Shown piece after piece: positions 15,509 to 39,319 of a DNA stretch of 64,000 bases. The notes under the pieces were generated by a model that worked only from the letters and a program-made list of their open reading frames with translations, searched no databases and had not been told where the DNA came from. The stretch covers positions 9,911-73,910 of the forward strand of contig JAZNFP010000059.1 in the NCBI GenBank assembly GCA_045576095.1. The letters run 5' to 3'. Made by a program: the position numbers and the translations under genes. Numbering within the stretch: position 1 is the stretch's first letter; each line of letters begins with the position of its first letter. Source of the stretch: Eubacteriales bacterium (lineage in GTDB: Bacteria > Bacillota > Clostridia > Oscillospirales > CAG-272).

Positions 15509-15509
15509 A

Positions 15510-15872: not shown

Positions 15873-15900
15873 GCATCCAATGATTTATGGAGGTAAAAAA

Positions 15901-16179: not shown

Positions 16180-16187
16180 AAAATTAC

Positions 16188-16229: not shown

Positions 16230-16255
16230 TAATATCATTTAAGGAGTTTCGTGCT

Positions 16256-17302: not shown

Positions 17303-17307
17303 AATCA

Positions 17308-17338
17308 GGAGCCGAAAGCAACGCTTTCGGCTCCTTTT
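17308..17338. terminator. Bidirectional terminator between galE and the desulfurase gene
   Basis: 12-bp stem GGAGCCGAAAGC-aac-GCTTTCGGCTCC followed by TTTT. It overlaps the stop of the convergent gene. Confidence 0.8.
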
Positions 17339-18455
17339 ATCTTAAGATTTTGCAAAGCGCCGTATAAAGGGAATCCAGCTCCTTTTCGGTGTTGGTAATA
17401 CCAAAGCTGATGCGAAGCGCGCCGCCGGATACTCCGACCTGAGATGCATGTGCAAGCGGAGCGCAGTGAAAACCGCCACGTACGCAAATTCCGTAGCCGT
17501 CAAGTTCATCCGCAAGGTACTCCGATGGCAAATCCTCGTGTGAAAAGGAAAGCAGACTTCCTAGGCCGTCCTCACGACAATAGATGCGAATTTTGGAAAA
17601 CTTCGACAGAATCTCACGGCAACGGCAGACCAATCCGCTCTCATGCGCTTCGATCTCTTCAAGTCCGATTTTACGCACATATTCGATTCCGGCGCGAAGC
17701 GATACGATCGCGGGGGTTGAGAGCGTTCCTGCCTCAAATCGCTCGGGGGCCTTTTCGGGCATGCCTCGACTTTGCGATTCGGTTCCGCTTCCGCCGTATA
17801 GGAAGGGGGGGAGTTCTCCGGCATTTTTTAAATAGACGAAGCCGCTGCCTTGAATTCCGTACAGCCCCTTGTGTCCTGGAGCGCAAATTGCATCTGCCTC
17901 GGCGATCTCGGGCGGTACGGCGTGATGACCGAGCCATTGAGAGGCATCAAGAATCAGATACAGGCCTTTTCGCCTTGCAACCGAAAGCAACGCCTGCACG
18001 GGAACGGTATTCCCGGTAACGTTTGAGGTGAGATTGCATACGAGAATATCTGTCGTCGGGTGCAAGCAACGCTCAATCGCCTCGGCATTACACCGAGCTG
18101 CCGAGAAAAAATCATATTCGATCAATCCCTCATCCCGAAGTGCGTATACGACCCTAAGGGTTGCGTTGTGCTCCTGATCGCTGAGCAAAATCCGAGTACC
18201 CTTCCTTGCGCGCGTTCGTATTGCCAGATTCAGCGCCATGGTTGCATTTTGCGTAAACACAATCTGCTCGGGCATAACATAGAGAAGCCTTGCAATTTCT
18301 TCTCTGCATTCGTATACTGCCTCGGATGCTCGGAGCGAAAGCTGATGACCGCCTCTCCCGGGGTTTCCACAGAAGCTTCGAATGCAGTCTGTCAGAGCTT
18401 CAACGACGCTTTCCGGTTTCGGAAAGCTCGTTGCTGCATGGTCAAAATAGATCAT
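17337..18455 (-). CDS. Class V aminotransferase-fold cysteine desulfurase family protein (SufS/CsdA-like)
   Basis: MIYFDHAATSFPKP..., PLP-lysine context ...APGHKGLYG..., group-II active-site Cys context ...VRGGFHCAPLAH... Confidence 0.85.
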   Translation of the reverse strand: MIYFDHAATSFPKPESVVEALTDCIRSFCGNPGRGGHQLSLRASEAVYECREEIARLLYVMPEQIVFTQNATMALNLAIRTRARKGTRILLSDQEHNATLRVVYALRDEGLIEYDFFSAARCNAEAIERCLHPTTDILVCNLTSNVTGNTVPVQALLSVARRKGLYLILDASQWLGHHAVPPEIAEADAICAPGHKGLYGIQGSGFVYLKNAGELPPFLYGGSGTESQSRGMPEKAPERFEAGTLSTPAIVSLRAGIEYVRKIGLEEIEAHESGLVCRCREILSKFSKIRIYCREDGLGSLLSFSHEDLPSEYLADELDGYGICVRGGFHCAPLAHASQVGVSGGALRISFGITNTEKELDSLYTALCKILR

Positions 18456-18670
18456 CTCCGATCGGACTTCCGTTGATAGGAAATTCCGAGCTCGTCAAGA
18501 TAGGAGTAGATGCGGAACCGTTCGCTTGCCTCAATCTCAATGGCGTAGGTGCATCCCGTTGATTGCTTTTGCGATGCTTTGACAACCCGCGTTCGGACTC
18601 CTTTCTGTCCGAGCTCCTTCTTCGCCTTCATGGCGTAGGTTACGGAGCCGATAACGATCTTTTCCTTCAT
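18452..18670 (-). CDS. Small DUF3343-like protein (putative S/Se carrier)
   Basis: 72-aa ORF with a GGAGGAG RBS and a 4-nt overlap with the downstream desulfurase gene. The family assignment is from memory of this gene pairing, not an alignment. Confidence 0.5.
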   Translation of the reverse strand: MKEKIVIGSVTYAMKAKKELGQKGVRTRVVKASQKQSTGCTYAIEIEASERFRIYSYLDELGISYQRKSDRR

Positions 18671-18755
18671 TGTCTCCTCCTTTTCTTTCCTTGCAAACTC
18701 ATTAACAGGCTATGCCTAAATCGTCTCTTTTGATATTCTTTTTTAAGAATATCGG

Positions 18756-18784
18756 TAGACAAAAGACTCGTTTTGTGCTATAAT
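18756..18784 (+). promoter_or_regulatory. Sigma-A-type promoter of the MBL-fold hydrolase gene
   Basis: TAGACA (18756-18761), 17 nt, TGcTATAAT (-10 at 18779-18784). Confidence 0.6.
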
Positions 18785-18833
18785 AAATCAATAATGACAA
18801 AAAAGGCGCTCAAACGGGAAGGGAAGTGGGGAT

Positions 18834-19454
18834 TTGACCGTAAAAAGCATCTGTAGCATGGGACTTGCCTCAAATTGCTACGTCGTCCTCGATGATTCTC
18901 TGCGAAACGCCGTCGTCGTCGATCCGTCAGTCTCCTATGAGTGCGTCGTTGCATCACTTGGATTTGAGCCCGTCTTTTGCGGTATCCTTTTAACGCACGG
19001 GCACGCCGATCATCTCCTTGCTCTTGACGACTGGAAAAGAAAAACGCGAGCGCCCGTTATGATCGGGCAGTGCGATGCCTATGCGCTCAATCATCCCGAG
19101 GCAAGCTGTGCGAATCTGCTTGGACTCGGCGATCTTCGCTTTGGGGAGCCCGACGTCATCCTCTCGGACGGTGACCTGATTGACGTAGGGAACGCCCGGC
19201 TTCGTGCCATTTCGACACCCGGGCATAGCTGTGGCTCATTCTGCTTTTATTCCGAGGGGCATCTTCTTTCGGGAGATACGCTTTTTGCCGGCGGCGGCAT
19301 CGGACGAGCGGATCTTTTCGGAGGTGATGAGAGCGCTCTTTTGTCGTCGGTTGCGGCGCTCGTCACTCTTGCGCCGGATACGGTTGTCTATCCCGGTCAC
19401 GGACCGCAAACGTCGATCGGTGCCGAGGCGCATTTTCATAAAAATTACCGTTGA
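18834..19454 (+). CDS. MBL-fold metallo-hydrolase (glyoxalase II-like)
   Basis: ...LLTHGHADHLLAL... HxHxDH motif and later ...TPGHSCGS... The start is uncertain: TTG 18834 or ATG 18855. Confidence 0.85.
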   Translation: MTVKSICSMGLASNCYVVLDDSLRNAVVVDPSVSYECVVASLGFEPVFCGILLTHGHADHLLALDDWKRKTRAPVMIGQCDAYALNHPEASCANLLGLGDLRFGEPDVILSDGDLIDVGNARLRAISTPGHSCGSFCFYSEGHLLSGDTLFAGGGIGRADLFGGDESALLSSVAALVTLAPDTVVYPGHGPQTSIGAEAHFHKNYR

Positions 19455-19492
19455 ACATTATTCTTTTTTGAAGAGGAGCTTACACCTGCTTT

Positions 19493-21145
19493 ATGGAAGA
19501 AACGAAGAACCATTTTATTCATGACATTATTGACGAGGATCTGAAGGAGAATCCCTCTCTGAAGATTCATACGCGCTTCCCGCCGGAGCCGAACGGATAT
19601 CTGCATATCGGAAGTGCGAAAGCGATCTGGATTAACAGCCAGACCGCAAAGAAATACGGCGGGCTTTTCAATCTCCGTTACGACGATACCAATCCCGCCA
19701 AGGAAGGGGACGAGTTTGTCCGTTCCATCTATGAGGATCTCACGTGGCTTGGCGCAACCCCGACCGGAGGTGTTTTTTACGGATCGGATTATTTCGACAA
19801 ATGCTATGAGTTCGCTCTCAAGCTGATCCGTCAGGGAGATGCGTACGTTTGCGATCTTTCGGCTGATGAGATGCGAGAATATCGAGGCACGCTCACCGAG
19901 CCGGGACGCCCGAGCCCCTACCGCGATCGCACGGTTGAGGAAAATCTTAAGCTGTTTGAGGCAATGAAAAACGGGGAATACCCCGACGGTGCAAAAACTC
20001 TTCGTGCAAAGATCGATATGGCATCGCCGAACATCAATCTCCGCGACCCGGCGATCTATCGCATCGTGCACACGCAGCATCACCGTCAAGGTGATAAGTG
20101 GTGCATCTATCCCCTGTACGACTACGCGCATCCGATCCAGGACGCGCTTGAGGGGATTACGCACTCGCTTTGCTCAATCGAGTTTGAAAACCACCGACCG
20201 CTGTACGATTGGGTCATCCGGCACGTCGGCTTTGATCTTCCGCCGCATCAGTACGAATTCGCAAGGCTGAACGTTACCCACACTGTCATGAGCAAGCGCT
20301 ATCTGCGTCAGCTTGTCGAAACGGGACTCGTTGACGGATGGGACGATCCGCGCATGCCTACCATCTGCGGTCTTCGCAGACGCGGGTATACGCCCTCTGC
20401 AATTTTCGATTTCGTCGCCCGTGCAGGAGTTGCCAAAGCCTACAGCGTCGTCGATTACGAGCTTCTTGAGCACTGCATCCGCGAGGAGCTCAACGCAAGC
20501 GCTCCGAGACGAATTGCAGTTCTGAATCCGGTTAAGGTTACGGTCACCAACTATCCCGAGGACAAAACCGAGTACTTCCATCTTCCGAACAATCCGCAAC
20601 ACCCCGAGGAAGGTACGCGCGCCCTTCCGTTCTCGCGTACCCTTTGGATCGATGCAGACGATTTTGCGGAGGTTCCGCCGCCTAAGTTTCACCGCTTAAA
20701 GCCGGGCGGTGAGGTTCGTCTCATGGGTGCATATATTATCCGTTGCGACGAAATCAAAAAGAATCCCGACGGTTCGATCGCCGAGCTACTTTGCACGGCG
20801 GATCTTGAGACGGGCTCCGGCATGCCCGCCGACGGAAGGAAGATTAAAGGAACGATTCATTGGCTCAGCGCAAAAGAAGCAATTTCTGCTGACGTTAAGC
20901 TCTTTGACTATCTCTTTACGATCGAGAACGTCTCTGACATCCCCGAGGGAAAGGGATATGGCGACTATCTGAACACCGAGTCGGTAAATACGATTACGGG
21001 AGCGTACCTTGAACCGACGTTAAAGGATGCCGAACCGGGCGAGCGCTTCCAGTTCGTTCGAATCGGATATTTTGTCAAGGATACGAAGTACGACTCGACC
21101 TTCAACCGTATCGTCGGACTGAAGGACAGCTTTCCAAAATCCTAA
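19493..21145 (+). CDS. glnS: Glutamine--tRNA ligase
   Basis: ...RFPPEPNGYLHIGSAKA... (HIGH) and ...VMSKRYL... (KMSKS-like). The ~550-aa size and C-terminal beta-barrel region are typical of GlnRS. Confidence 0.92.
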   Translation: MEETKNHFIHDIIDEDLKENPSLKIHTRFPPEPNGYLHIGSAKAIWINSQTAKKYGGLFNLRYDDTNPAKEGDEFVRSIYEDLTWLGATPTGGVFYGSDYFDKCYEFALKLIRQGDAYVCDLSADEMREYRGTLTEPGRPSPYRDRTVEENLKLFEAMKNGEYPDGAKTLRAKIDMASPNINLRDPAIYRIVHTQHHRQGDKWCIYPLYDYAHPIQDALEGITHSLCSIEFENHRPLYDWVIRHVGFDLPPHQYEFARLNVTHTVMSKRYLRQLVETGLVDGWDDPRMPTICGLRRRGYTPSAIFDFVARAGVAKAYSVVDYELLEHCIREELNASAPRRIAVLNPVKVTVTNYPEDKTEYFHLPNNPQHPEEGTRALPFSRTLWIDADDFAEVPPPKFHRLKPGGEVRLMGAYIIRCDEIKKNPDGSIAELLCTADLETGSGMPADGRKIKGTIHWLSAKEAISADVKLFDYLFTIENVSDIPEGKGYGDYLNTESVNTITGAYLEPTLKDAEPGERFQFVRIGYFVKDTKYDSTFNRIVGLKDSFPKS

Positions 21146-21175
21146 AATTCACAACTCTCTCGAAGGAGCAGTGCC

Positions 21176-22447
21176 ATGAAGATCAATACAAAATGCATTC
21201 AATCGGGTTATCAGCCGAAAAACGGGGAAGCGCGTATTCTTCCCATCTGGCAGTCAACGACCTATAAGTATGATTCGAGTACCGAGATGGGAATGCTCTT
21301 TGACCTTGAAAAGTCGGGATATTTTTACTCGCGTCTGCAGAATCCTACCTGTGACGCCGTAGCCGCAAAGATCTGCGATCTTGAGGGCGGAATTGCCGCA
21401 ATGCTTACCTCTTCGGGGCAAGCCGCTAATTTCATCGCGCTCTTTAACATCTGTCCTGCAGGAAGCCATATCGTTGCTTCCTCGGCAATCTACGGCGGAA
21501 CCTTCAATCTGCTTGGCGTTACCATGAAGAAGATGGGCATTGACGTCACCTTCGTTGATCCTGACGCCGATGAGCAGACGCTTTCTGCGGCGTTTCGTCC
21601 CGAAACCCGCGCCGTATTTGCCGAGTCGATCGCTAATCCCGCTCTGACGGTTCTTGATTTTGAAAAATTCGTCCGGCTCGCGCATCAAAACGGAGTCCCC
21701 GTCATCGTTGACAACACCTTCCCGACACCGATCAACTGCCGTCCCTTCGAATTCGGGGTTGATATCGTCACGCATTCGACGACAAAATACATGGACGGAC
21801 ACGCTATGACGGTCGGAGGTGCCATCGTTGACAGCGGTAGCTTTGACTTTTCGGCACATGCCGACAAGTACCCCGGGCTTTGCACGCCGGACGATTCCTA
21901 TCACGGCATTATCTATACCGAGAAATTCGGGAAGCTCGCTTATATTCAAAAGGCAACGGCGCAGATGATGCGAGATCTCGGCTCAATCCAGTCGCCTCAG
22001 AATGCATTTCTTCTGAACGTCGGTCTCGAAACTCTCGCGCTTCGTATGCAAAGACACTGCGAGAATGCACAGAGAGTCGCCGAGTTTCTCGCATCGCATC
22101 CGAAGGTCACCTGGGTGAATTTCCCGGGGCTTGCAAGCAGTCCGTACTATGAGATTGCAAAGAAGTATATGCCGGGCGGCACCTGCGGCGTCGTTTCCTT
22201 CGGTGTCAAGGGCGGTAGGGAAGCCGCAACTCTGTTTATGGACTCGCTCAAGCTTGCGGCGATCGTTACGCACGTAGCCGACGCGCGCACCTGCATCCTT
22301 CATCCCGCCAGCACAACGCATCGTCAGCTGACCGACGAGCAGCTCGCCGAGTGTAAAACGCCCGCAGATCTTCTGCGTCTTTCGGTTGGTATCGAGGATT
22401 CCGACGATATCATCGCCGACCTCGCACAGGCACTTGATCTCCTCTGA
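21176..22447 (+). CDS. metY: O-acetylhomoserine aminocarboxypropyltransferase / sulfhydrylase
   Basis: ...IWQSTTYKYDS...YFYSRLQNPT... and ...HSTTKYMDGH... (PLP Lys), Cys/Met-metabolism PLP family. Confidence 0.88.
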   Translation: MKINTKCIQSGYQPKNGEARILPIWQSTTYKYDSSTEMGMLFDLEKSGYFYSRLQNPTCDAVAAKICDLEGGIAAMLTSSGQAANFIALFNICPAGSHIVASSAIYGGTFNLLGVTMKKMGIDVTFVDPDADEQTLSAAFRPETRAVFAESIANPALTVLDFEKFVRLAHQNGVPVIVDNTFPTPINCRPFEFGVDIVTHSTTKYMDGHAMTVGGAIVDSGSFDFSAHADKYPGLCTPDDSYHGIIYTEKFGKLAYIQKATAQMMRDLGSIQSPQNAFLLNVGLETLALRMQRHCENAQRVAEFLASHPKVTWVNFPGLASSPYYEIAKKYMPGGTCGVVSFGVKGGREAATLFMDSLKLAAIVTHVADARTCILHPASTTHRQLTDEQLAECKTPADLLRLSVGIEDSDDIIADLAQALDLL

Positions 22448-23293: not shown

Positions 23294-23716
23294 TTACTTC
23301 AGCTGTCCGAGAACGCGCTCGGTCCACTCAAGTACAGCCGTCTCCTCATCGGGCGTATACTTCTTTGCAAACTTGAAAGGAAGACCGCCATTGATGTACA
23401 GCACGTCCTCAATAACGTTGACACCGGTATTTTTGAGTGTCTGCAGGATCTGCGAGGCGTGCTCGGGCTTTCCGTCAACGATCAGCGCCACGTTCGTCGC
23501 CATCTCACGCGAAAGGCGGCTTCCGCAGAAGCGAGTAAAGGTTTCGGGCATGGATGCCTTTGCGGAGACGACAATGACGATCAGACGCTCACGCTCGCAG
23601 GGATAAGCCGGAGGGATCTGATCAACCTTGTAGGAGGATTCTGCCTTCTCGGCAACCTTTGCGGCAAGGCTCAAGAGCTTACCTTTGTTTGTCGCAGTAA
23701 GAACGCGCATTTTCAT
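23294..23716 (-). CDS. Hypothetical protein (140 aa)
   Basis: ORF with an AAGGAG RBS. The alternating beta/alpha pattern suggests a flavodoxin-like fold, but I see no FMN-loop motif. No family recognised. Confidence 0.6.
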   Translation of the reverse strand: MKMRVLTATNKGKLLSLAAKVAEKAESSYKVDQIPPAYPCERERLIVIVVSAKASMPETFTRFCGSRLSREMATNVALIVDGKPEHASQILQTLKNTGVNVIEDVLYINGGLPFKFAKKYTPDEETAVLEWTERVLGQLK

Positions 23717-24119: not shown

Positions 24120-24389
24120 TCAAACCGCCTTTTCCCGACGTCTTTGCAAATATTTGATCCGCGTTGCTTCACCGCCACGCAGATGCCGCTCGGATTTGTT
24201 TTGATCGAGCACTTTTTTTACACGGTCGTACAGATCGGGATTGACCGTCATGAGCTTTGCGGTAACGTCCTTATGTACCGTGCTTTTACTGACCGCAAAA
24301 ACGCGCGCCACGGCACGGACGGTACACTCTCTTTCGATCAGATATTCCGCTAGGATCTCACACCGTTCCTTTTGGCTCTGCTGATACAT
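24120..24389 (-). CDS. spoIIID: Sporulation transcriptional regulator SpoIIID
   Basis: ...CTVRAVARVFAVSKSTVHKDVTAKLMTVNPDLYDRVKKVLDQNKSERHLRGGEATRIKY... closely follows the SpoIIID HTH and basic-tail pattern. GGGGAGGG RBS. Confidence 0.93.
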   Translation of the reverse strand: MYQQSQKERCEILAEYLIERECTVRAVARVFAVSKSTVHKDVTAKLMTVNPDLYDRVKKVLDQNKSERHLRGGEATRIKYLQRRREKAV

Positions 24390-25331: not shown

Positions 25332-25360
25332 TTGACAAGGCTTTTGAGATACGATATAAT
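25332..25360 (+). promoter_or_regulatory. Consensus sigma-A promoter of the LtaS-like / YidC::TagF operon
   Basis: TTGACA (25332-25337), 17 nt, TATAAT (25355-25360), followed by an AT-rich tract. Confidence 0.75.
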
Positions 25361-25403: not shown

Positions 25404-27206
25404 ATGAGTATAAAGAAAACCGACTGCTTTTTGACCGAACGAAAATCGAGAATTGCAGCATCCGCTCTTCTTGCTTTAACGGTTTCAATCATGATTTTTG
25501 TCGTCATACCCTTTGAAATTTACTGTAACAATCTTCCGGAACTGACCTTCTCAGTCTCCGACTTCATTGGGATACAGCTGCTTTTGGCGCTTGCTCTCTC
25601 ACTTCTCATCTTTTCTCTGCTGTTTTTTTCACCGCATGTCGTTTATGAGTACGTCTATCCCGCGTTGGTAGGCGTTCTCCTGATGTTCTTTTTGCAGGGG
25701 AATTATCTTAACGTCGGTCTTTCCTCGCTTGACGGCGATGAGCTCGGCGGCGGTGTCCCCCCCTCAACGTACGTGTGGAATACGGCGGTTTGGTTGCTCG
25801 TTATCGGCGGCTCTGTCCTTGCTTACCGACTCATCAAGCAAAAGAGCACGGTGAAGCTCGCCGCCATCATCGTGTCGGTTGCCGTTTTGGCAACCCAGCT
25901 GATGAATTTTTCCGTCAGCTCACTGTCCACAGAGGGGGCGTACGATTCTGCGATTGACCGTGTTTATGGGAAATATGCGGAGAATCCGCGCTTCCTTACC
26001 AACAAGGGTATCGGAACGGTCGGCTCGCAGAAGAACGTGATTGTGATCTGTGTTGATCGCTTTGATACGCTGCTCTACGTAGAGCCTGCCATGCAGAAGT
26101 ACCCTAAATCCTTTGAAGCGCTCGATGGCTTTACCTTCTACAGAGATGCCGTATCTCTTTACGGATACACCTTCCCCTCCGTTGCCTATATGATGTCCGC
26201 GATCGAATACGACCACTCGGGCGACCGCCTTGCGTACTTTGATCGCGTATATCAAGAGAATCAAACGATCTCGCGTCTTCACGAGCTTGGCTATTCGGTT
26301 CATCTTTTCAGCGAAGCCTACTACGACTATTCCAACGCCAACGAGCTTCCGAATTACGTCGAAAATGCGATTGAAACCGACCGCGAGTCGCTTGAGACCA
26401 AAAATCGCTTCCCCGATCGCTTCGCGCTTGCCATTACAAAGATGTCGTTGTACCGCATTTTTCCCTTCGTTTTGAAATCCACGGTTGGCGGTGTCAGCTC
26501 GGATACCTGCAACGAATATATCCTCTATACCAGCCGGGATCTTTCGGGATATCATGCATATTCCTATGATATGAAGGACGTATACAAGGATATTCTGCGC
26601 CGCCTCAAAGTCGGCTTTGAAGCGAAGGGAGAAAAAAACTTCACTTTTCTTCATATCAGCGGATGCCATAACGCAAAATACGACGAGAACTGGGAAAAAT
26701 CCGGGCATAAGAAAGACGTTCTTGTGTCGGCAAAGAACAGCATGGAGCTGATATCCTCTTATTTAAACGGCATCAAGGCAATCTCCGAGGATCTTTATCG
26801 AGATTCCACCATCATCATTATGGGCGATCACGGTAAGGTTCTTCATCCGTTAAAGGACTTTTCCGCTCCCATGATGACGGCGTTTTTCGTCAAGCCCTCC
26901 GGAGAGGCCGGCACCGAGCTTCGGATCTCTGATGCCCCGGTTGCACAGGAGAACCTTTGGGCAACCATCTTTGAGTCCGAGGGCATTGACTACGATTCTA
27001 CCGCCTTTGCTCCGTCGGTCTTTACGGTTGAACAGAATTTCCTGGAAAGCGGTGACTATCCCGAACGAAAATTTATCTGGACAGCGCGCAAGGTCGGCAT
27101 GGCCTCTTACGATACCGTTGAATATAAGATTACGGGTCCCGCGCGCGACTTTTCAAGCTGGCATGTGGATGCACGGAACCACTACGACAATACGCTATTC
27201 CATTGA
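25404..27206 (+). CDS. LTA-synthase-family (sulfatase-fold) membrane phosphotransferase
   Basis: About 190 aa of N-terminal TM helices, then an extracytoplasmic alkaline-phosphatase-superfamily domain (...NVIVICVDRFDTL..., ...GYTFPSVAYMMSA..., ...IIIMGDHGK...). Confidence 0.8.
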   Translation: MSIKKTDCFLTERKSRIAASALLALTVSIMIFVVIPFEIYCNNLPELTFSVSDFIGIQLLLALALSLLIFSLLFFSPHVVYEYVYPALVGVLLMFFLQGNYLNVGLSSLDGDELGGGVPPSTYVWNTAVWLLVIGGSVLAYRLIKQKSTVKLAAIIVSVAVLATQLMNFSVSSLSTEGAYDSAIDRVYGKYAENPRFLTNKGIGTVGSQKNVIVICVDRFDTLLYVEPAMQKYPKSFEALDGFTFYRDAVSLYGYTFPSVAYMMSAIEYDHSGDRLAYFDRVYQENQTISRLHELGYSVHLFSEAYYDYSNANELPNYVENAIETDRESLETKNRFPDRFALAITKMSLYRIFPFVLKSTVGGVSSDTCNEYILYTSRDLSGYHAYSYDMKDVYKDILRRLKVGFEAKGEKNFTFLHISGCHNAKYDENWEKSGHKKDVLVSAKNSMELISSYLNGIKAISEDLYRDSTIIIMGDHGKVLHPLKDFSAPMMTAFFVKPSGEAGTELRISDAPVAQENLWATIFESEGIDYDSTAFAPSVFTVEQNFLESGDYPERKFIWTARKVGMASYDTVEYKITGPARDFSSWHVDARNHYDNTLFH

Positions 27207-27233: not shown

Positions 27234-29339
27234 ATGGATACGGTCATCAGTTATATCTGCATTCCGCTCGGACTGCTTATGAAGTGGTGTTGGCTTGCGG
27301 TCAAGGACTATGGACTTGCCATACTCCTTTTCACGCTGGCGACGAAGGTTGTTCTGCTTCCCCTTTCGATCTGGATCCAAAAGAACTCGATTCAGATGGT
27401 CAAGCTTCAGCCTGAGATTAATTTTCTCAAGGTCAAGAACCTCGGGAACGGAGATCTGATTGCGGAGGAGCAGGCAAAGCTCTTTAAGCGCGAGCATTAT
27501 CATCCGATGCTCTCTCTCATTCCTCTGCTTCTTCAGATTCTGCTTCTGCTTGGAGTCGTTCAAATCATCTATCATCCTCTGACGTACCTCTTCGGCGTAT
27601 CTGCAGCCGATGTCAAGCTGCTTGCAGAGGCAATCGGTGCGAATACCGCCGAGAGCTCGTTTCAGCTTGCCATCGTCGATGCATTCAAATCGGGCGAGCT
27701 TTCTTCGGCAACGGTAATTTCGGGTATAGATCCTGCCTATCTCGCTTCTCTTGCCGAGCGCGTTTCGGCATTTGATCTTGCATTTTTGGGACTCAATCTT
27801 TCGGTCGTTCCAATGGGGACCTGGGCAAAGTACACCTGGATTCCTCTGCTTGCCGGCCTCTCCTCCTGGATTCTCTGTCAAACGCAGAATATGTCAAACG
27901 TTCTGCAACACGAGCAGAGCCCCTGGAACAAGTACGGCATTATGATCTTCAGCGTCCTTCTCTCGCTCTATCTCGGCGTTTTCGTTCCGATCGGTATTGC
28001 GATTTACTGGATCCTAAGCAATCTCTTCTCGGTGATTCAGATGTATCTTCTGAATGTCCTAATCAACCCCAAAAAGCACGTTGACTACAAGGCGCTTGAG
28101 GAAAGCCGTGTTGCACTCGCAAATTTGAAGGCGTTTGGCGAGGAGGACAAAAAGAGTGAGGAGCACAGAATAAATCGCCAAAGAGAACGCGAGGACATCA
28201 AGCGCTTTAAGAAGATTGTCAATAAGCACGTCGTGTTCTATTCCGAACGTGGCGGCTTCTATAAATACTATAAGGATCTGATTGCCGAGCTGTTAAGGCG
28301 CTCCAACCTCTCGATCCATTACATCACAAACGATCCGGATGACTCGATCTTTGATATCGCAAAAACCGAGCCGAAAATCAAGCCGTACTACGTTTCGCTG
28401 AAGAAAACGGCAACCCTGATGATGCTCATGGAATGCGATATGTTCGTCATGACAACCCCCGATCTCAATAAATTCTACCTCAAGCGCTCCTTTATCAAAT
28501 CCGATATTGAATACGTTTACGTACCGCACGATATGATGAGCGTACACATGAGCTTCCGTGAGGGTGCATTTGACGCCTTTGATACGGTGTTTTGCGTCGG
28601 GCCTCACGTTGAGCGAGAGCTGCGTGAAATAGAGCGCGTATACGGACTGAAGGAAAAGAAGCTCGTGCGGTTCGGATATCCTCTTGCCGACCTTCTTTCG
28701 GTCGAGGGGAAAAAGGCCGCTGACGAAAAGAAGGACTCGTCGGTTAAGGAAATTCTGATCGCGCCTTCCTGGCAGGAGGACAATCTTCTCGACAGCTGTA
28801 TCGACGACATAATTTCGGCGCTTTACGGCACCGGGAATCATATCATCGTCCGTCCCCACCCCGAGTATGCAAAGCGCTTCCCAAACGCCCTTGCCGAGCT
28901 GACACAGCGTTACCGCGAGTATGACGAGAGCAAGCTGAGCTTTGAGTTCAACTTTTCGGTCAATCGCTCGATTTATGCATCCGACGTTTTAATTACCGAC
29001 TGGTCGGGTGTTGCAACCGAGTTCTGCTTTGCTACGGGGCGTCCCGCCATCTTCATTAACACGAAGATGAAGTGTCCCAATCCCAACTACACGAAGATCC
29101 CTCTTACCCCCGTTGAAATTTCCCTTCGAAGCACCGTCGGTGTCGCGCTTGACAAGACCGAGCTATCCACCCTCCCCGAGGTCCTCAAGCAGCTTGGCGA
29201 GAGAGGTGATGAATATCGCACCGTCATCCGCGAAACCGAGTCCTCCCTGATCTTCAACCACGGCACAGCTGCAAAATGCGGCGCCGACTATATTCTCCGC
29301 TCGCTTTCTGCCCGTCAGAGCAAATCTAAAAACAAGTAA
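27234..29339 (+). CDS. Fusion protein: N-terminal YidC/Oxa1-type insertase domain + C-terminal CDP-glycerol glycerophosphotransferase (TagB/TagF) domain
   Basis: aa 1-280: ...DYGLAILLFTLATKVVLLPLSIW...MVKLQPE... and ...PIGIAIYWILSNLFSVIQMYLLN (YidC hallmarks). aa 281-330: K/E/R-rich linker. aa 331-701: ...ILIAPSWQEDN..., ...IIVRPHPEY..., ...VLITDWSGVATEF... (Glyphos_transf hallmarks). No in-frame stop. Confidence 0.8.
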   Translation: MDTVISYICIPLGLLMKWCWLAVKDYGLAILLFTLATKVVLLPLSIWIQKNSIQMVKLQPEINFLKVKNLGNGDLIAEEQAKLFKREHYHPMLSLIPLLLQILLLLGVVQIIYHPLTYLFGVSAADVKLLAEAIGANTAESSFQLAIVDAFKSGELSSATVISGIDPAYLASLAERVSAFDLAFLGLNLSVVPMGTWAKYTWIPLLAGLSSWILCQTQNMSNVLQHEQSPWNKYGIMIFSVLLSLYLGVFVPIGIAIYWILSNLFSVIQMYLLNVLINPKKHVDYKALEESRVALANLKAFGEEDKKSEEHRINRQREREDIKRFKKIVNKHVVFYSERGGFYKYYKDLIAELLRRSNLSIHYITNDPDDSIFDIAKTEPKIKPYYVSLKKTATLMMLMECDMFVMTTPDLNKFYLKRSFIKSDIEYVYVPHDMMSVHMSFREGAFDAFDTVFCVGPHVERELREIERVYGLKEKKLVRFGYPLADLLSVEGKKAADEKKDSSVKEILIAPSWQEDNLLDSCIDDIISALYGTGNHIIVRPHPEYAKRFPNALAELTQRYREYDESKLSFEFNFSVNRSIYASDVLITDWSGVATEFCFATGRPAIFINTKMKCPNPNYTKIPLTPVEISLRSTVGVALDKTELSTLPEVLKQLGERGDEYRTVIRETESSLIFNHGTAAKCGADYILRSLSARQSKSKNK

Positions 29340-29364: not shown

Positions 29365-29604
29365 ATGTATTTGAGCATGCTTTACATCGATCCTGCAGCA
29401 ACCACCGCCCTCCTCTCCTCGGTTACGGCGATCGCCGTTGCCTGCGGCGCCACCTTTATTATCCTTTGGCGCAAGCTGAAAAAGGGCGCAAAGAACGTTC
29501 TTCATATTGATGAAAACGCCGGAAAAGAGGTTGAGTCCGAGCTCGTTATCATCGACGAGGAAACCGCAGAGCCTGCTGTCAAGGAAACCGTTGAAAGCAA
29601 TTAA
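29365..29604 (+). CDS. Small membrane protein (79 aa), last gene of the operon
   Basis: AAGAGG RBS. One hydrophobic helix (AATTALLSSVTAIAVACGATFIILW), then a KK stop-transfer and an acidic tail. Confidence 0.5.
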   Translation: MYLSMLYIDPAATTALLSSVTAIAVACGATFIILWRKLKKGAKNVLHIDENAGKEVESELVIIDEETAEPAVKETVESN

Positions 29605-29619
29605 ATCGCGCAAAACCAA

Positions 29620-29654
29620 GGGAGCTCCCATGCTGATCAGCACGGGAGCTCCCC
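29620..29654. terminator. Long palindromic hairpin between convergent genes
   Basis: GGGAGCTCCCATGCTGA / TCAGCACGGGAGCTCCC (17 bp, one mismatch). The T-tract is weak (CCTTATACTTTT). Confidence 0.55.
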
Positions 29655-29667
29655 TTATACTTTTAGT

Positions 29668-30984
29668 TTACTTCACAAATTCGGAATAGATACACTTGAG
29701 CGCATTGACGTAATCCCCCTCATCAACGCCGACGATGATGTTGAGCTCGCTCGAGCCCTGGTCGATCATCTTGATGTTGATCGAAGCATCGGCAAGCGCA
29801 CGGAAGATTCTCGCGGCAGTTCCCTTAGCTTTAACCATCGAGCGTCCGACGATTGCAATCAAGGCAAGATTATCCTCAATATCAATGGCATCCGGCTCGG
29901 TCATGCGACAGATTTCGGTGAGAAGAAAATCACGCTTGCCGATGATATCGTTTGAATTAACGACGACCGACATCGTGTCGATTCCGGAGGGAAGATGCTC
30001 AAAGCAGACCTCGCATTTCTCAAGCGCCTCAAGGAGACGGCGACCGAAGCCAATCTCGGAATTCATCATGTCCTTTTCAACCGTTACGACAGAAAAGCCG
30101 CGCTTACCTGCAATTCCAGTGATGACGTGCTCCGAGATTGCATCGGTGGAATGCGCAACGATCATCGTTCCTCTATCCTCGGGACGGTTCGTATTGCGGA
30201 TATTAATCGGGATCCCGGCGTAACGGACGGGGAAAATGGCATCCTCGTGCAGAACGGTTGCGCCCATGTATGAAAGCTCGCGCAGCTCCTTATAGGTAAT
30301 GGTGTCAATAACGCGAGGATTCTCAATCAATCGGGGATCCGCCATTAAAAATCCCGAAACGTCGGTCCAGTTCTCGTATAGATCGGCATTCACCGCACGA
30401 GCAACAATCGAGCCAGTAATATCAGAGCCACCGCGCGAAAAGGTCTTGATCGTACCGTTCGGCATGCTGCCGTAGAACCCGGGAATAACTGCCTGATAAT
30501 GCTCCTTTAAGATCGCCGATAGGATGATGTTGGTTTTCTCGGAATCAAAATTTCCATCCTCACGGAAGAAGATATACTTCTGAGGATCGATAAAATCAAA
30601 GCCGAGATAATTCGCAAGGATGATACCGTTCAAATACTCTCCGCGGCTTGCAATATAGTCACGGCCCGCACAGTGCAAAATAGCGGTGCGGATCGTTTCA
30701 AACTCCTTTTCCAGGGAAAGATCCAGCCCAAGCTCCTCGATGATCGAGCGGTAACGAGCCTCAATTTTAGAGAAGGTCTCATCGATCCCCTGGTCCGCAA
30801 GTGCGAGCTCAAAGCAACGGTACAAAAGATCCGTCACCTTCTCATCCTCGGAAAAACGCTTTCCGGGGGCTGACGGGATCACGTAACGGCGGCAGGACTC
30901 CGCACGGACGATCTCCCCGACTCTGCGAAAATGCTCGGCATCGGCAAGCGAGCTGCCTCCGAATTTCAAAACCTTAAGTTGCAC
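29668..30984 (-). CDS. lysC: Aspartate kinase
   Basis: (GTG)QLKVLKFGGSSLADAEHF... and C-terminal ACT domains (...LALIAIVGRSM...INIKMIDQGSSELNIIVGV...). GAGGT RBS. Confidence 0.93.
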   Translation of the reverse strand: MQLKVLKFGGSSLADAEHFRRVGEIVRAESCRRYVIPSAPGKRFSEDEKVTDLLYRCFELALADQGIDETFSKIEARYRSIIEELGLDLSLEKEFETIRTAILHCAGRDYIASRGEYLNGIILANYLGFDFIDPQKYIFFREDGNFDSEKTNIILSAILKEHYQAVIPGFYGSMPNGTIKTFSRGGSDITGSIVARAVNADLYENWTDVSGFLMADPRLIENPRVIDTITYKELRELSYMGATVLHEDAIFPVRYAGIPINIRNTNRPEDRGTMIVAHSTDAISEHVITGIAGKRGFSVVTVEKDMMNSEIGFGRRLLEALEKCEVCFEHLPSGIDTMSVVVNSNDIIGKRDFLLTEICRMTEPDAIDIEDNLALIAIVGRSMVKAKGTAARIFRALADASINIKMIDQGSSELNIIVGVDEGDYVNALKCIYSEFVK

Positions 30985-31262: not shown

Positions 31263-32168
31263 TTACTTTCCGTTTCCGCAACCGCATCTTCCGGCAAGGT
31301 TGCTCAAGCCGGTTGCATTTGCACTTGAGGTCGAAAGAAGGGCTCTCGCGTTGCCGTTGCCGTTGCCGTTCTGGGCACAGTTCGTTCCGGCAAACTCTCC
31401 CGTCGGAAACGCCATCGTTCGGAAAAGGCTGCAGGGATCGTCCTGCTCGGCCGTAACGCTCTCCTTATCCGGAACGCTGTAGTCGCTTGCACTGATCAAA
31501 AGCTGCGCGGGGCGCTTTAAGCGAATGACCGAGAAGATACCGAGGGAAACGTACAGACGGTTACCGCAGTCGGGATCAACGAGCGGCCCGATCAAGGAAG
31601 AGCAAACCGCCTCGGGAATCTCGTCACAGCGACAGAAGCAACAGCCGCACTGAAGATTTCTCTCGCAGATCTTCACCGAGAGCGCGATCGGATCAACAAC
31701 CTCGACAACGCCTACGGGGAGATTGGAGGCAGCCTCGGCGGGACTGAAGTCGCACAGCCCCGTATCGCTGCTGCTCGTAAAGATTTTGACACTTCCCTCG
31801 CCGCCGTACAGAACGGCACGCTTTTCAAGGACTGCGATTCCCGCAAAATCCTGACTTCTTCCGGTTGCAACGCACCCCTCAAAGGAAAGCTTGACGTAGT
31901 ATCTCGCCGTAAGCTGATAGAAGCCGCAGTTGAAGGGAATGGGATCAACGCTGATCTGTGTCCAAACAACCTCGGCGCTGCGAACTCTTACCGTGCAGGT
32001 ATTGTCAATAACCTCCTGACCAAGCGCTGTCAGATAGATTCTGACGTCCTCGTAGCAATCGCGATCGCGAGAGGAATCAAGGATACGGTAAGTATCAATG
32101 CAGACCGTCTCCCGTCCGCCAAGCGCACCGTTCCCCTGGGCACATCTGTTTTCTGCCATACAGAACAT
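31263..32168 (-). CDS. Cysteine-rich hypothetical protein (301 aa, 20 Cys)
   Basis: ORF with RBS TAGGAG. Features: CIDTYRILDSSRDRDC, CGCCFCRC cluster, NGNGNGN repeat, C-terminal GRCGCGNGK. No signal peptide or TM helix. I recognise no family. Confidence 0.65.
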   Translation of the reverse strand: MFCMAENRCAQGNGALGGRETVCIDTYRILDSSRDRDCYEDVRIYLTALGQEVIDNTCTVRVRSAEVVWTQISVDPIPFNCGFYQLTARYYVKLSFEGCVATGRSQDFAGIAVLEKRAVLYGGEGSVKIFTSSSDTGLCDFSPAEAASNLPVGVVEVVDPIALSVKICERNLQCGCCFCRCDEIPEAVCSSLIGPLVDPDCGNRLYVSLGIFSVIRLKRPAQLLISASDYSVPDKESVTAEQDDPCSLFRTMAFPTGEFAGTNCAQNGNGNGNARALLSTSSANATGLSNLAGRCGCGNGK

Positions 32169-32211: not shown

Positions 32212-32242
32212 CATGATATGCACAGATATTTTTTTTGCTAAA

Positions 32243-32650
32243 TCAAACGAGAGAGCGCATCTCCTCGGAGCAATCCTCAATCGGTGCAGAAACCGTCATA
32301 ACGAAATTGAAGCCGTAGGTGTCCGAAAGCTTACGGACACGGGAAACGACCGATTCAACGCCCGCCATATCGTACTTACAAATCTTCAGTGCCGCATCTA
32401 CGAAAATATCGGTAATATCGTGATCGCTTGCAGCAAGACCGGCAATAAAACCGTAAAGTGCATCTGCGCTCTCGATGCCGAACGCCGTCGTATCGACAAG
32501 TCGAGCCTTGTATGTAACGTCAAAATTCAGGGTGTTTCCATACTCGACACAAATGACCGAGCCCTTCGTCGCTGCCGCTGCAGCATTGACCTGCTCAATC
32601 AGATTCTTGGTTTTTCCGGAGCCTCTTGCGCCGATGATTAACTTAACCAC
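32243..32650 (-). CDS. Minimal Walker-A (P-loop) protein, 135 aa
   Basis: GTG start at 32650, 7 nt after AGGAGG. (M)VKLIIGARGSGKTKNLIEQ... Walker A. A possible Walker B is DITDIFVDAA. The track ORF start at 32731 lacks an RBS. Confidence 0.6.
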   Translation of the reverse strand: MVKLIIGARGSGKTKNLIEQVNAAAAATKGSVICVEYGNTLNFDVTYKARLVDTTAFGIESADALYGFIAGLAASDHDITDIFVDAALKICKYDMAGVESVVSRVRKLSDTYGFNFVMTVSAPIEDCSEEMRSLV

Positions 32651-37223: not shown

Positions 37224-37259
37224 AACCGCCTCTAATCTGCAGAGGCGGTTTTGTTTTTT
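37224..37259 (+). terminator. Intrinsic terminator after the DUF624-like gene
   Basis: AACCGCCTCT-aatctgc-AGAGGCGGTT followed by TTGTTTTTT. It overlaps the last codons of the convergent deacetylase gene. Confidence 0.8.
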
Positions 37260-37915
37260 AGCTCTTCCACCGTAACGAAGCGATAGCCACGGTGCAAAAG
37301 CTCGGGGATCAGACGGTCAAGAGCTTGTATCGTGTTTCCGTTCGGACAGGTATAATCGTGGAAAAGTATAACGTCGTTACCGCGAACCGTGGAAAGCACG
37401 GACTGTACGATTCTATCGGGAGATTTTCCGCGCCAATCCTCCGAGTCAATCGTCCAAAAGACTGCCTCATAGCCAAGTGTGGCAAGAGCCTCGGAGAGCG
37501 CAGGCGGACATTTTCCCTCAGGCGGTCGAAAATAGCGCGGGCGCCGACCGGAAAGCGCATTAATCAGCCCTCCCGTTTTCTCGATTTCATCAGCAAGATC
37601 TGCGGCGCTTTTGTTGTTCGTCTTGTGATCAAAGGAGTGATTTTCAATTTCGTGCCCCTCTGAGATCGCACGCCGAAGCGGCTCCGGATAGTAGCCGACG
37701 TTGCAGCCGAGAACGAAAAAGGTCGCGTGAACGCCGTATTTTTTCAGTACGTCAAGGACTTTTCCCGTATTGCCCGGGTGGGGACCGTCGTCAAAGGTCA
37801 GGGCAATCATCTCCATCCCCTCGCCGACAACGTCAGACGTCTGCGCGCGCACCGAAAGCACGGGCGTCAGAGTCATCGCCGCAAGCACGAGCAGCGCACA
37901 AATCGAGCGCTTCAC
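37232..37915 (-). CDS. Secreted polysaccharide deacetylase (NodB/CE4 domain)
   Basis: Signal peptide, ...IALTFDDGPHPGNTGKVLDVLKKYGVHATFFVLG..., ...HEIENHSFDH... Confidence 0.88.
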   Translation of the reverse strand: MKRSICALLVLAAMTLTPVLSVRAQTSDVVGEGMEMIALTFDDGPHPGNTGKVLDVLKKYGVHATFFVLGCNVGYYPEPLRRAISEGHEIENHSFDHKTNNKSAADLADEIEKTGGLINALSGRRPRYFRPPEGKCPPALSEALATLGYEAVFWTIDSEDWRGKSPDRIVQSVLSTVRGNDVILFHDYTCPNGNTIQALDRLIPELLHRGYRFVTVEELKNKTASAD

Positions 37916-38703
37916 TTCTCCACCGCCGTCAGCTCGTCAAGCGTTCCAAAGGTATATCCGAGATCTCTCCAAGCGCGAATCAGCTCAGGGAGAATTTTTG
38001 CATTCGTTTCCGACGTCGGATGCAAAAGCAAGACCGCGCCCGGATGCGTATGCAAAAGGATCTTCTCTATGGCAGCCTTCGGATCCGGCTGATGCTTGTT
38101 GTCCCAATCGGCATAGGCGAAGCTCCAGAAAACCGTACGGTATCCCATCTCGCACGCCGTACGGAGATTGTCGATCGAAAAAGCTCCCTCGGGCGGTCGA
38201 AAATAACGAGCGATTTCGCACCCGACGGTATCTCTGTAAATCTTCTCCATCCGCTCAAGCTCCGCTTTAAATTCTGCGGCACTTGATCTTGAAAGATTTT
38301 TGTGGCTTGCCGTATGGTTACAAACGAGATGCCCCTCATCAAGCATTCGGCGGACGAGCGGCGTTTCTGCAGTCACCAGATGCTCTAAGATAAAGAATGC
38401 GCAAGGAACCTGCTCGGCCTTCAACACGTCGAGAATTTTCTCAATATTTCCGTTCTCATATCCTGCGTCAAAGGTCAGATACAGCTTTTTTTCAGGATTC
38501 GGGCGGATATCGCAGTACCATCCGCTATGCTCACTCAGAAAAGAGAATTCTCCGGGAAGAACCGGCGTTTTGTGCTCGTCGTTGCGCTTGACGTACCATC
38601 GGTAAGCACCTTCTCCCGAATGTGTGGGAGCGCTATCACAAATACCAAACGGCGCCGTACAAAAACAAGCGCAGGTCAATAACAAAGAAATAAGGGTCTT
38701 CAC
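37912..38703 (-). CDS. pdaA: CE4 polysaccharide deacetylase, PdaA-like (delta-lactam de-N-acetylase type)
   Basis: GTG start 38703 gives signal sequence (M)KTLISLLLTCACFC. ...LYLTFDAGYENGNIEKILDVLKAEQVPCAFFIL... and ...NHTASHKNLS... resemble PdaA. 4-nt overlap with the next deacetylase gene. Confidence 0.7.
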   Translation of the reverse strand: MKTLISLLLTCACFCTAPFGICDSAPTHSGEGAYRWYVKRNDEHKTPVLPGEFSFLSEHSGWYCDIRPNPEKKLYLTFDAGYENGNIEKILDVLKAEQVPCAFFILEHLVTAETPLVRRMLDEGHLVCNHTASHKNLSRSSAAEFKAELERMEKIYRDTVGCEIARYFRPPEGAFSIDNLRTACEMGYRTVFWSFAYADWDNKHQPDPKAAIEKILLHTHPGAVLLLHPTSETNAKILPELIRAWRDLGYTFGTLDELTAVEK

Positions 38704-38803
38704 TTGACACCTCTTGCAGCAAGGATTACGGTCAGATAACCGCAATCTCATTTTGCACCGAGGTGCCGAAGCAAAAACCCGGAAATATTTTGGGGAAACG
38801 ACA

Positions 38804-39319
38804 CTATTCGGAAGAGGAAACAGCAAAAACAAGTGCGCGCATATTGTCGGTAATCTCGCCCCCGTCAACGTCAACCGTAATGTCAGCGTATCGCTCATAG
38901 AGCGGAACGCGCTCGCGGTAAAGATCGTCAATTGTCATACCGCTCGGCATAACAATTCCCCTTTGGCTGTAATCCTTGAGATTTTCCTTAATACGGGAGA
39001 GAGAGGAACGAAGATAAACGACCCGTCCGGTTTTGTAAAGATGCTCCATCGCGTCGGGATAATAGACGGCGCTCCCTCCTGTTGCAATCAAGGTCTCTGA
39101 TGGCGACAGCGAGAGAAGAAGATTACGTTCAAGACGGCGAAAGGCAACAAGTCCCTTTTCTGCAATGATTTCCTGAAGCGGACTTCGGGCACTCTGCTGC
39201 AGGAGAATGTCGGTATCAAGAAATGACAGGCAAAGCACCTTTGCCGCAAGAATGCCGATCGTGCTTTTTCCGCAACCCGGCATCCCGATCAAAATGATAT
39301 TTTTTGATTTCTCACTCAT
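38804..39319 (-). CDS. aroK: Shikimate kinase
   Basis: MSEKSKNIILIGMPGCGKSTIGILAAK...LDTD... The start at 39319 overlaps the GH13 stop by 8 nt. Confidence 0.88.
   Translation of the reverse strand: MSEKSKNIILIGMPGCGKSTIGILAAKVLCLSFLDTDILLQQSARSPLQEIIAEKGLVAFRRLERNLLLSLSPSETLIATGGSAVYYPDAMEHLYKTGRVVYLRSSLSRIKENLKDYSQRGIVMPSGMTIDDLYRERVPLYERYADITVDVDGGEITDNMRALVFAVSSSE

Follow-up and report, generated by a model that had tools for sequence, protein, structure and literature searches.

A YidC-TagF-like fusion protein of Clostridia that travels with a sulfatase-fold membrane enzyme and a small single-span protein

Enzymes of the TagF type transfer an alditol-phosphate from a cytidine diphosphate (CDP)-linked donor onto a hydroxyl, with release of cytidine monophosphate (CMP), and EptA, LtaS, OpgB and BcsG take phospho-head groups from outer-leaflet phospholipids through a phospho-threonine intermediate. 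BcsG functions with a small single-span partner, BcsF. In the LicC/PntC activation logic, surface tailoring uses a small phospho- or phosphono-alcohol activated by cytidine triphosphate (CTP) (PMC6697681). The insertase YidC of Escherichia coli scrambles glycerophospholipids in vitro when purified, and members of the Oxa1 family do so in simulations (PMC11047089). Here we describe a 64 kb stretch of a Eubacteriales bacterium genome (contig JAZNFP010000059.1, hereafter the window) in which one gene, F, encodes a YidC/Oxa1-type module and a TagF-like phosphotransferase domain in a single chain, between a gene for a polytopic enzyme, S, and a gene for a single-span protein, m. We found that F is a new combination of known kinds of part, those of CTP-dependent envelope tailoring or teichoic-type synthesis, and that F, S and m very probably make up one dedicated system.

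The initial annotation of the window, made from sequence without database searches, had claimed that F fuses YidC to a TagB/TagF-type domain with no in-frame stop, and profile searches bore this out, with the domain boundaries as it had placed them. Pfam 60KD_IMP (PF02096) matches residues 26-274 at 99 bits (cut-off 35), and Glyphos_transf (PF04464) matches residues 330-608 at 45.5 bits (cut-off 22.1; profile positions 13-292 of 367). Against the NCBIfam YidC core model TIGR03592, F scored 88.3, narrowly over the cut-off of 84.3. A ribosome-binding-like AAGGA lies 8 nt 5' of the F start codon. The AlphaFold2 (AF2) model of F, built with 64 homologs (mean predicted local distance difference test score, pLDDT, 86.4; predicted template modelling score, pTM, 0.60), runs from an N-terminal helix through transmembrane helix (TM) 1 to the C1 hairpin, TM2, an insertion of about 80 residues, TM3 to TM5, two linker helices and a two-Rossmann domain. 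Helices of the YidC part were modelled at residues 26-68, 73-86, 91-113, 199-221, 230-250 and 253-276. The conserved helix at the C-terminal end of the linker is the N-terminal helix of stand-alone TagF-like homologs.

Two adjacent genes merged by a sequencing error, in assembly or gene calling, would give the same picture, and the a-priori rarity of the architecture, with nothing further, speaks for such an artefact. The same continuous ORF was found in thousands of independent metagenome assemblies and was confirmed at at least 580 loci in a scan that took one genome per species, and the linker is under purifying selection. On this survey evidence a frameshift or misassembly of F was rejected, a missed stop or frameshift within 28070-28230 is excluded, and we consider the chance of an artefact negligible. 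A large protein database held more than 120 full-length homologs of F at 60% identity or higher, almost all with both Pfam domains precomputed, and a profile search added a further diverse set of homologs at 40-62% identity with continuous architecture. Among 1.84 billion cluster representatives there were 596 matches at E<=1e-30. How widespread the architecture is had been left open by the initial annotation: the fusion is common (at least 580 species) and uncharacterised, and is thus neither rare nor already explained. When sources name F homologs at all, they call them "membrane protein insertase YidC", and in the literature we found no description of YidC joined to TagF-like or other glycerophosphotransferase genes, to LtaS or to phosphonate genes.

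For comparison of neighbourhoods we kept 80 loci from the genome scan, and linkage was counted on 82 distinct loci (84 including two duplicates). All 80 kept loci belong to Clostridia, mainly metagenome-assembled genomes (MAGs) from gut or rumen, and they comprise Christensenellaceae, Oscillospiraceae, Acutalibacteraceae, Ruminococcus, Lachnospiraceae and Acetivibrionales. One full-length family member, P0286, is labelled 'MAG: Caulobacteraceae bacterium'; because the other named matches and all 80 loci are Clostridia, it is probably a mis-binned contig. S adjoins F in 69 of the 82 distinct loci (6 of the 13 loci without a match, counted on all 84, are truncated contigs). The small gene m was present in 64 of the 82 by tblastn, and family clustering recovered it in 6 more. 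The gaps are short, mostly 3-36 nt between S and F and about 0-90 nt between F and m. S-F-m is kept at locus L001, where every other neighbour differs from those of the window, and also where S is inverted or shifted downstream. At L001 the genes 3' of the module (12582..22094) include AIPR, Pepco, helix-turn-helix (HTH) and REP_ORF2-G2P genes, which suggests that the module there abuts a mobile or defence region.

The three proteins are also found as single chains. S and F, both full-length and S with its TM block, are joined in 15-16 representative clusters of 1168-1545 aa, with the order S-F in 8 and F-S in 7 or 8. Four of these clusters (P0124, P0140, P0157 and P0164) run from F through a signal-peptide-like TM and m to S, with the junction "A-x-A|Y-[IV]-D-P-S". 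Every fusion junction fits F with its N-terminus outside and C-terminus inside, m likewise, and S with its N-terminus inside and C-terminus outside. The 1361-aa F-m-S protein belongs to a 26-member cluster drawn from many assemblies, including two complete genomes of Raoultibacter timonensis (WP_244386239.1), a cultured member of the Coriobacteriia, and the fusions are therefore not gene-calling accidents; a 1386-aa form is present in Coriobacteriales bacterium OH1046. The R. timonensis chromosome (locus L091, AP025577.1 2,897,451-2,921,536) measures 4.02 Mb and carries the F-m-S gene at 2.91 Mb; the adjoining 5' gene encodes another m-S fusion, of 809 aa. Directly 3' of the F-m-S gene are TerB_N/TerB_C, BrxC/BrxD-like AAA and helicase genes, which have the look of a defence island. 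Rarer arrangements were P0139 (1545 aa), with S, DUF7024, YidC and the TagF-like domain; P0172 (815 aa), in which the TagF-like domain follows an N-terminal part that is YidC-like but very divergent (Pfam E=2.8e-4) and has Ser in the groove; and P0194 (658 aa), with a GT2 glycosyltransferase joined to a TagF-like domain.

Within the window, F has as neighbours S, m, SpoU and aspartokinase (Table 1); the initial annotation had overlooked S and m as partners. The predicted S-F-m operon extends from the promoter-like site at 25332, which probably starts it, to the hairpin at about 29650. This GGGAGCTCCC repeat sits between m and the convergent aspartokinase gene and is a probable bidirectional terminator closing the operon; it was not called in our terminator scan because its loop is longer than 8 nt.

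Table 1. Features of the S-F-m module, in positions of the window
Feature	Coordinates	Strand	Description
Promoter-like site	25332..25360	+	TTGACA, 17 nt, TATAAT; 12/12 consensus match; 44 nt 5' of S
S	25404..27206	+	600 aa, polytopic; Sulfatase-fold (alkaline-phosphatase-superfamily) domain; directly 5' of F
F (YidC-TagF-like fusion)	27234..29339	+	701 aa; ATG start; uninterrupted 701-codon frame
YidC/Oxa1-type module of F	27234..28073	+	Residues 1-280; Pfam, TIGR03592, PDB YidC matches, AF2
Helical outer-loop insertion of F, ~80 aa	27585..27827	+	Residues 118-198, between TM2 and TM3; alignment
Charged helical linker of F	28074..28220	+	Residues 281-329; C-terminal RExxD(I/Y)KRF helix conserved
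TagF-like GT-B phosphotransferase domain of F (predicted cytoplasmic)	28221..29336	+	Residues 330-701; Pfam, TarL profile, Foldseek
m	29365..29604	+	79 aa, single-span; directly 3' of F; tblastn and family clustering
Hairpin-like repeat	29621..29668		Self-complementary GGGAGCTCCC twice, 14 nt apart, then T-rich run

We identified S by fold and by residue pattern. It has helices over about its first 175 residues, followed by an extracytoplasmic domain of the alkaline-phosphatase superfamily. Its Pfam Sulfatase match was marginal (33.6 bits; cut-off 25), and it matched no NCBIfam family and, by sequence, no PDB entry, which leaves it without curated membership of LtaS, EptA or OpgB. The AF2 model of S (pLDDT 90.8, pTM 0.83) had as top full-length Foldseek matches PbgA (6XLP), MCR-1 (9NWW) and EptA (5FGN). 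In the alignment D218, T256 (in GYTFPS; codon 26169-26171) and D475-H476 (in GDHG) are invariant, a pattern that fits a Thr-nucleophile phosphotransferase rather than a formylglycine sulfatase. We presume, going by motif order and not by superposition, that these residues correspond to E240, T280, D452 and H453 of EptA. The small protein m has no Pfam match. It carries an N-terminal LYIDPAATT motif (outside), a TM helix, and WRKLKKG with an acidic tail (inside). Some of its homologs have a signal-peptide-like extension with A-x-A immediately before YIDPS, which places the mature N-terminus of m outside and its tail inside.

The TagF-like half of F is highly diverged and was recognized by profile and by structure; it had no PDB match by single sequence and no NCBIfam match. 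Its domain profile matched Staphylococcus aureus TarL (8VA1) at E=2.9e-6, with RPH542P at the place of KMHP and TD589WS591 at that of SDYS. The ILIAPSWQ and IIVRPHPEY motifs claimed by the initial annotation are present and, with VLITDWSG, align to LFAPTF, KMHP and ISDYSS of TarL. The best Foldseek matches of F were TagF 3L7L and 3L7K (E=7e-10, target-normalised TM score 0.58), followed by generic GT-B enzymes (MurG, epimerases) and then by E. coli YidC, the Bcs3 capsule polymerase of Hib and TarL. The domain's invariant residues are H432 (28527-28529), R540-P541-H542-P543 (H542 at 28857-28859), D589-W590-S591 and E596; among 371 family sequences H432 and H542 are each kept in 369, as are the RPHP and DWS motifs. 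H542 is the counterpart of the diphosphate-binding H584 of TagF, and H432 is a candidate for the catalytic base (H444 in TagF, H300 in TarL). H432 lies 42 profile positions before the TarL-aligned block, compared with 45 residues for TarL H300, a likeness of spacing only and not a residue alignment. The cytoplasmic site claimed for this half is correct: the YidC-type C-terminus is cytoplasmic, and the domain therefore faces the compartment of nucleotide-activated donors.

The YidC module consists of an N-terminal helix, TM1 with K38, the cytoplasmic C1 hairpin, TM2 with Q101, TM3, TM4, and TM5 with W259 and N263, and is oriented with its N-terminus outside and its C-terminus inside. Its family profile matched YidC structures in the PDB down to E=5.8e-22, and TM1, C1, TM2 and TM5 align to the E. 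coli and Bacillus halodurans proteins. The groove cation K38 (AAG at 27345-27347), claimed earlier, was confirmed and aligns with R366 of E. coli YidC and with the groove Arg of B. halodurans YidC2, while Q101, W259 and N263 fall at the positions of the Gln, Trp/Tyr and Asn that are conserved in the YidC groove. Of the 371 sequences, 353 have Lys and 12 have Arg at position 38 (Lys or Arg in 365), and Q101 is kept in 365, W259 in 368 and N263 in 364; the groove set of F, K38, Q101, Q218, W259 and N263, is intact. Lys in place of Arg at the groove position is, as judged from the alignment, a signature of the F family (95% of members). The outer-loop insertion is missing from family members of about 630 aa and is poorly conserved, with 0 of 81 positions invariant.

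Annotation pipelines call F a membrane protein insertase, and F could be a housekeeping or second, YidC2-like insertase with an add-on enzyme tail that places wall-polymer synthesis at insertion sites. The charged linker is reminiscent of the basic YidC2/Oxa1 C-tail, and no second YidC or TagF-like match was found beside F in the window or in the loci examined (not whole genomes). Yet F fell far under the cut-offs of all 18 YidC/SpoIIIJ/YidC2 equivalog models (SpoIIIJ 55.5 vs 377), and the rnpA-yidC-jag context is absent around F in the window, with no such family recurring in the 82 loci. The R. timonensis gene, at its chromosomal position, is part of a 1361-aa F-m-S protein, and a covalent link to a 600-aa exo-enzyme is hard to square with a general insertase. 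Solved canonical YidCs, moreover, carry Arg where 353 of 371 family members carry Lys. We therefore consider a housekeeping role very improbable.

We then compared the constraint on the two halves of F. Against L003, an 83% identical ortholog, the proportion of nonsynonymous differences (pN) was 0.069 in the YidC core and 0.099 in the TagF-like half; the corresponding values were 0.145 and 0.196 against L005, and 0.139 and 0.196 against L007. The ratio of nonsynonymous to synonymous rates (dN/dS) against L003 was 0.061 in the YidC core, 0.075 in the TagF-like half and ~0.145 in the linker, and in the insertion at residues 118-198 it was 0.145-0.34 (~0.145 against L003); these figures are approximate because dS is near saturation. 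All regions of F are under purifying selection (dN/dS 0.06-0.15 against L003), and evolution of the YidC core is no faster than that of the TagF-like half.

Forms in which the parts are separate bear on the same question. Many stand-alone TagF-like homologs (T) of about 385 aa start with their own Met and are 32-41% identical to the domain of F; one candidate, P0180, was rejected as a fragment cut by a contig end. At L086 a LicC-like nucleotidyltransferase (NTP-transferase), T, m with a signal peptide, S and a Wzx-type Polysacc_synt gene lie together with no YidC. T adjoins m at L088 and L093 and a LicC-like gene at L089, and L090 has S, T and a LicC-like gene. At L092 S is encoded with a cytidylyltransferase-phosphoenolpyruvate (PEP) mutase, a phosphonopyruvate decarboxylase, a phosphonate-type Fe-ADH, a stand-alone T, m and a separate, complete YidC of 224 aa. 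The PEP mutase (TIGR02320, 387 bits vs 320) and the decarboxylase (TIGR03297, 441 vs 312) scored above their cut-offs, and this T (P0183), 41% identical to the window domain, is among its closest stand-alone relatives. The L092 YidC is unfused and cannot be the enzyme's anchor; its presence shows the YidC module to be a member of the system in itself. A stand-alone TagF-like protein at L087 (P0204; 8001..12427) lies with a radical SAM gene, a methyltransferase and an NTP_transf_3/DUF6564 gene and has neither S nor m, so not every relative of the C-terminal domain of F belongs to S-F-m.

The initial annotation had offered, as one possibility, that the YidC-like module only anchors the polymerase; its helices would then keep the TagF-like enzyme in place, beside S and m, with any role in transport or insertion lost. 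Characterised TagF and TagB depend on membrane association, the fusion stations the TagF-like domain at the inner leaflet, and both the outer-loop insert and the linker are variable, all of which would suit a scaffold. This reading is disfavoured by the YidC retained at L092, where T is separate and soluble; by the YidC core, which is more constrained than the enzyme half; and by the near-invariant groove (K/R38 in 365 of 371), as invariant polar residues within the membrane would destabilise a simple anchor. Stand-alone T homologs, in addition, get by with the N-terminal helix alone. We conclude that the YidC module of F is a dedicated component and not a mere anchor, and we regard a purely anchoring function as improbable.

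Clues to the donor come from the neighbours of the module across the loci. An HTH-LicC-like NTP-transferase is near the module in 24-27 loci, often with an ABC importer between the two. The binding protein and permease of this importer best match, under the cut-offs, the "putative 2-aminoethylphosphonate" families PhnS2 and PhnU2; such importer genes occur in 12-23 loci, and a PhnW-like aminotransferase occurs once. TagD-like genes were near the module in 5 of the 82 loci, and LicC-like or phosphonate genes are commoner. The initial annotation had read CDP-glycerol/teichoic chemistry into F; LicC/PntC-type and phosphonate neighbourhoods are at least as frequent. In the window itself a CDP-glycerol donor is possible, without specific support. 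By analogy, the LicC-like, importer, TagD and L092 contexts place the family in a Lic/Pnt-type surface-tailoring logic. Among the recurrent neighbours at the 82 loci there was no exporter or flippase, the sole recurrent transporter being the substrate-binding-protein-dependent importer. The window's only flippase-type gene, of the Polysacc_synt/MatE/MurJ family (MOP flippase; 52162..53772, - strand), lies 23 kb off the module, and at other loci no such linkage to S-F-m was seen.

T is cytoplasmic, S is extracytoplasmic and no exporter is conserved with the module, which would call for a conduit between the two faces of the membrane. We tentatively favour, as the most economical reading of the S-F-m anatomy, a relay in which T charges a lipid, the YidC groove serves for the crossing and m-S discharges the lipid outside. 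In such a relay the TagF-like domain, with H432 catalytic and H542 binding the diphosphate, would move a CMP/CDP-activated phospho- or phosphono-alcohol to the hydroxyl of an inner-leaflet lipid; candidate donors, by lineage, would be CDP-glycerol, CDP-choline, CMP-2-aminoethylphosphonate and CMP-hydroxyethylphosphonate. The attached YidC groove would then pass the charged head group across the membrane in a scramblase-like manner. Outside, m-S would load the head group of the lipid donor onto Thr256 and hand it to the final envelope acceptor, and the free lipid would return to the inner leaflet. Characterised enzymes of the EptA/LtaS/OpgB class, to which S is likened here, all draw their head groups from phospholipid donors. 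It is also conceivable, and we advance this with greater reserve, that an Oxa1-superfamily fold has been recruited as a dedicated conduit for a lipid-linked phospho- or phosphono-alcohol, which would make F, m and S a 'charge, flip, transfer' machine. In support of the relay, the unfused, YidC-less T-m-S cluster of L086 adjoins a Wzx-type gene. We know of no cellular process that depends on lipid scrambling by YidC.

Several observations weigh against the relay. We infer its donor, its lipid acceptor, its final acceptor and the role of the groove. The 64 kb window has no tagD, LicC-like, ppm, tagGH or tagO gene, and hence no donor-activation gene; a search of it for tagD and LicC-like genes gave a weak match to a glgC-like gene as its sole result. 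Neither tagD nor tagGH, the genes that the initial annotation had wished to see placed, was thus found in the window, and because none is there the donor-synthesis genes of the organism would lie elsewhere in its genome. The Wzx-type flippase was seen once only, at L086, where the contig is truncated; Asn occupies the groove position in the stand-alone YidC of L092, likewise one sequence; and the pTM of the F model, 0.60, marks its predicted inter-domain geometry as low-confidence. S could, besides, use bulk phosphatidylglycerol or phosphatidylethanolamine unaided by T.

A working insertase would likewise be expected to conserve the groove and the C1 hairpin, and the Pf3-coat-like topology of m, N-terminus out and C-terminus in, is typical of YidC substrates and favours such a role. 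The YidC module might then be a dedicated insertase or assembly chaperone that inserts m and helps S to fold or assemble, in cis beside the TagF-like enzyme; a lipid intermediate, if there is one, would cross spontaneously or by other routes, or S would use ordinary phospholipids. F conserves what is canonical in insertases: the cation and the polar residues of the groove, and the C1 hairpin. The m protein lacks a signal peptide in most Clostridial loci yet needs its N-tail translocated, which is the classic YidC-only substrate class, and m of the unfused L086, L088 and L093 has a cleavable signal peptide instead. One metagenomic cluster of two members (P0136/P0461, 861-866 aa) has a signal peptidase I (Peptidase_S26) domain ahead of the YidC-TagF-like chain, which may point to a connection with protein export or with m processing, or may be read-through. 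However, m has a signal peptide despite the YidC module in L092 and in Lachnospiraceae-type loci, and the module is therefore not merely a substitute for a signal peptide. It would be odd for a factor of biogenesis only to be tied for good, 1:1, to a catalyst and, at the extreme, to share one chain with m and S, and ordinary substrates could be served by the housekeeping YidC. We consider a role in insertion or assembly alone rather unlikely. The synthase/translocase that the initial annotation had suggested for F, of which the relay is a form, is unproven; it is supported indirectly by S, whose site of action is the other side of the membrane and which occurs fused to F in either order, and by the lack of a conserved exporter.

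Beyond the module, the window encodes housekeeping functions, a glycogen operon and sporulation genes. The complete glycogen/alpha-glucan block (39312..49417, - strand) comprises an alpha-amylase/GlgX-like gene, glycogen phosphorylase, a starch/glycogen synthase (Glyco_transf_5), two genes with NTP_transferase and hexapeptide domains (glgD-like and glgC-like) and a branching-enzyme-like gene with CBM48 and alpha-amylase domains. SpoIIID (24120..24389, - strand; syntenic in L003) and two polysaccharide deacetylases of the PdaA/PdaB type (37232..38931, - strand) are present, and because of these the organism is probably a spore-forming member of the Clostridia. Four genes had no Pfam match: 31263..32168 (-), 23294..23716 (-), 32213..32641 (+) and 236..679 (+). 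The first two also had no NCBIfam match, and both have syntenic counterparts of the same size in L003.

Counting F proteins as housekeeping YidC inflates and distorts insertase annotation. The labels "YidC" and "hypothetical protein" hide what is probably a widespread route of envelope modification in the gut microbiota, with the module present in at least 580 species of Clostridia from gut and rumen and also in Coriobacteriia. A dedicated YidC-type conduit, if true, would be the first physiological, pathway-specific use of lipid scrambling by an insertase and categorically new, and it would fill in the transferase and export steps that are missing from bacterial phosphonate or phospho-alcohol surface tailoring. 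With a YidC hard-wired between a lipid-facing and an outward head-group transferase, the system offers a natural test of scrambling, for which the cultured R. timonensis, with its complete genome, is at hand.

Set against known systems, F is closest at its N-terminus to the YidC/Oxa1/Alb3 family (PF02096; E. coli 3WVF/6AL2, B. halodurans YidC2 3WO6), with which it shares the five-TM core, the C1 hairpin, a groove cation at the place of R366/R72, the groove Gln, Trp and Asn and, as in YidC2/Oxa1, a charged cytoplasmic C-terminal extension. Unlike these proteins, it has Lys in the groove and an outer-loop insertion of about 80 aa, lacks a lipoprotein signal and a P1 domain, carries a 370-aa enzyme in place of the ribosome-binding tail and can be joined covalently to S and m. 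The C-terminal domain resembles TagF, TarL and TagB (PF04464; Staphylococcus epidermidis TagF 3L7I-3L7M, TarL 8VA1) in its GT-B-like two-Rossmann fold, its cytoplasmic site, and the APSW/APTF, (R/K)xHP and (T/S)D(W/Y)S motifs; the spacing of its two invariant His residues is close to that of H300 and KMHP in TarL. It differs from them in being highly divergent and, through the fused YidC, membrane-integral and not peripheral; it is linked to S and m, whereas TagF-type enzymes are linked to tagO, tagA, tagD or tagGH, and one of its closest stand-alone relatives lies within a phosphonate biosynthesis operon.

S, for its part, shares an N-terminal TM block and an extracytoplasmic Sulfatase-fold domain with EptA/MCR-1, LtaS, OpgB, BcsG, GacH and the non-catalytic PbgA/YejM, and, judged by its motif pattern, it would have a Thr nucleophile and Asp/His metal ligands as in the EptA/LtaS class; it lacks the Cys/Ser-x-Pro-x-Arg sulfatase signature. 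Unlike the characterised members of that class, it is coupled or fused to what we take to be a cytoplasmic CDP-alcohol transferase and to a YidC module. The pairing of S with m recalls that of BcsG with BcsF. Like the Lic (LicB/LicA/LicC/LicD) and Pnt (Ppm/Ppd/PntC) pathways, in which a small phospho(no)alcohol, either imported or synthesised, is CTP-activated and then added to the envelope, S-F-m is found near LicC-like NTP-transferases, PhnS2/U2-like importers, a PhnW-like aminotransferase and bona fide Ppm and Ppd; its transferase is TagF-like, whereas that of Lic is LicD-like, and S, m and YidC have no counterpart in the described Lic and Pnt pathways. In concept F is comparable to BcsA, hyaluronan synthase and chitin synthase, in which the membrane module that the product crosses is likewise covalently tied to a cytoplasmic transferase. 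Those enzymes are GT-2 proteins with a channel of their own, whereas the module of F has the Oxa1-superfamily fold and a putative role in translocation, and the folds are unrelated.

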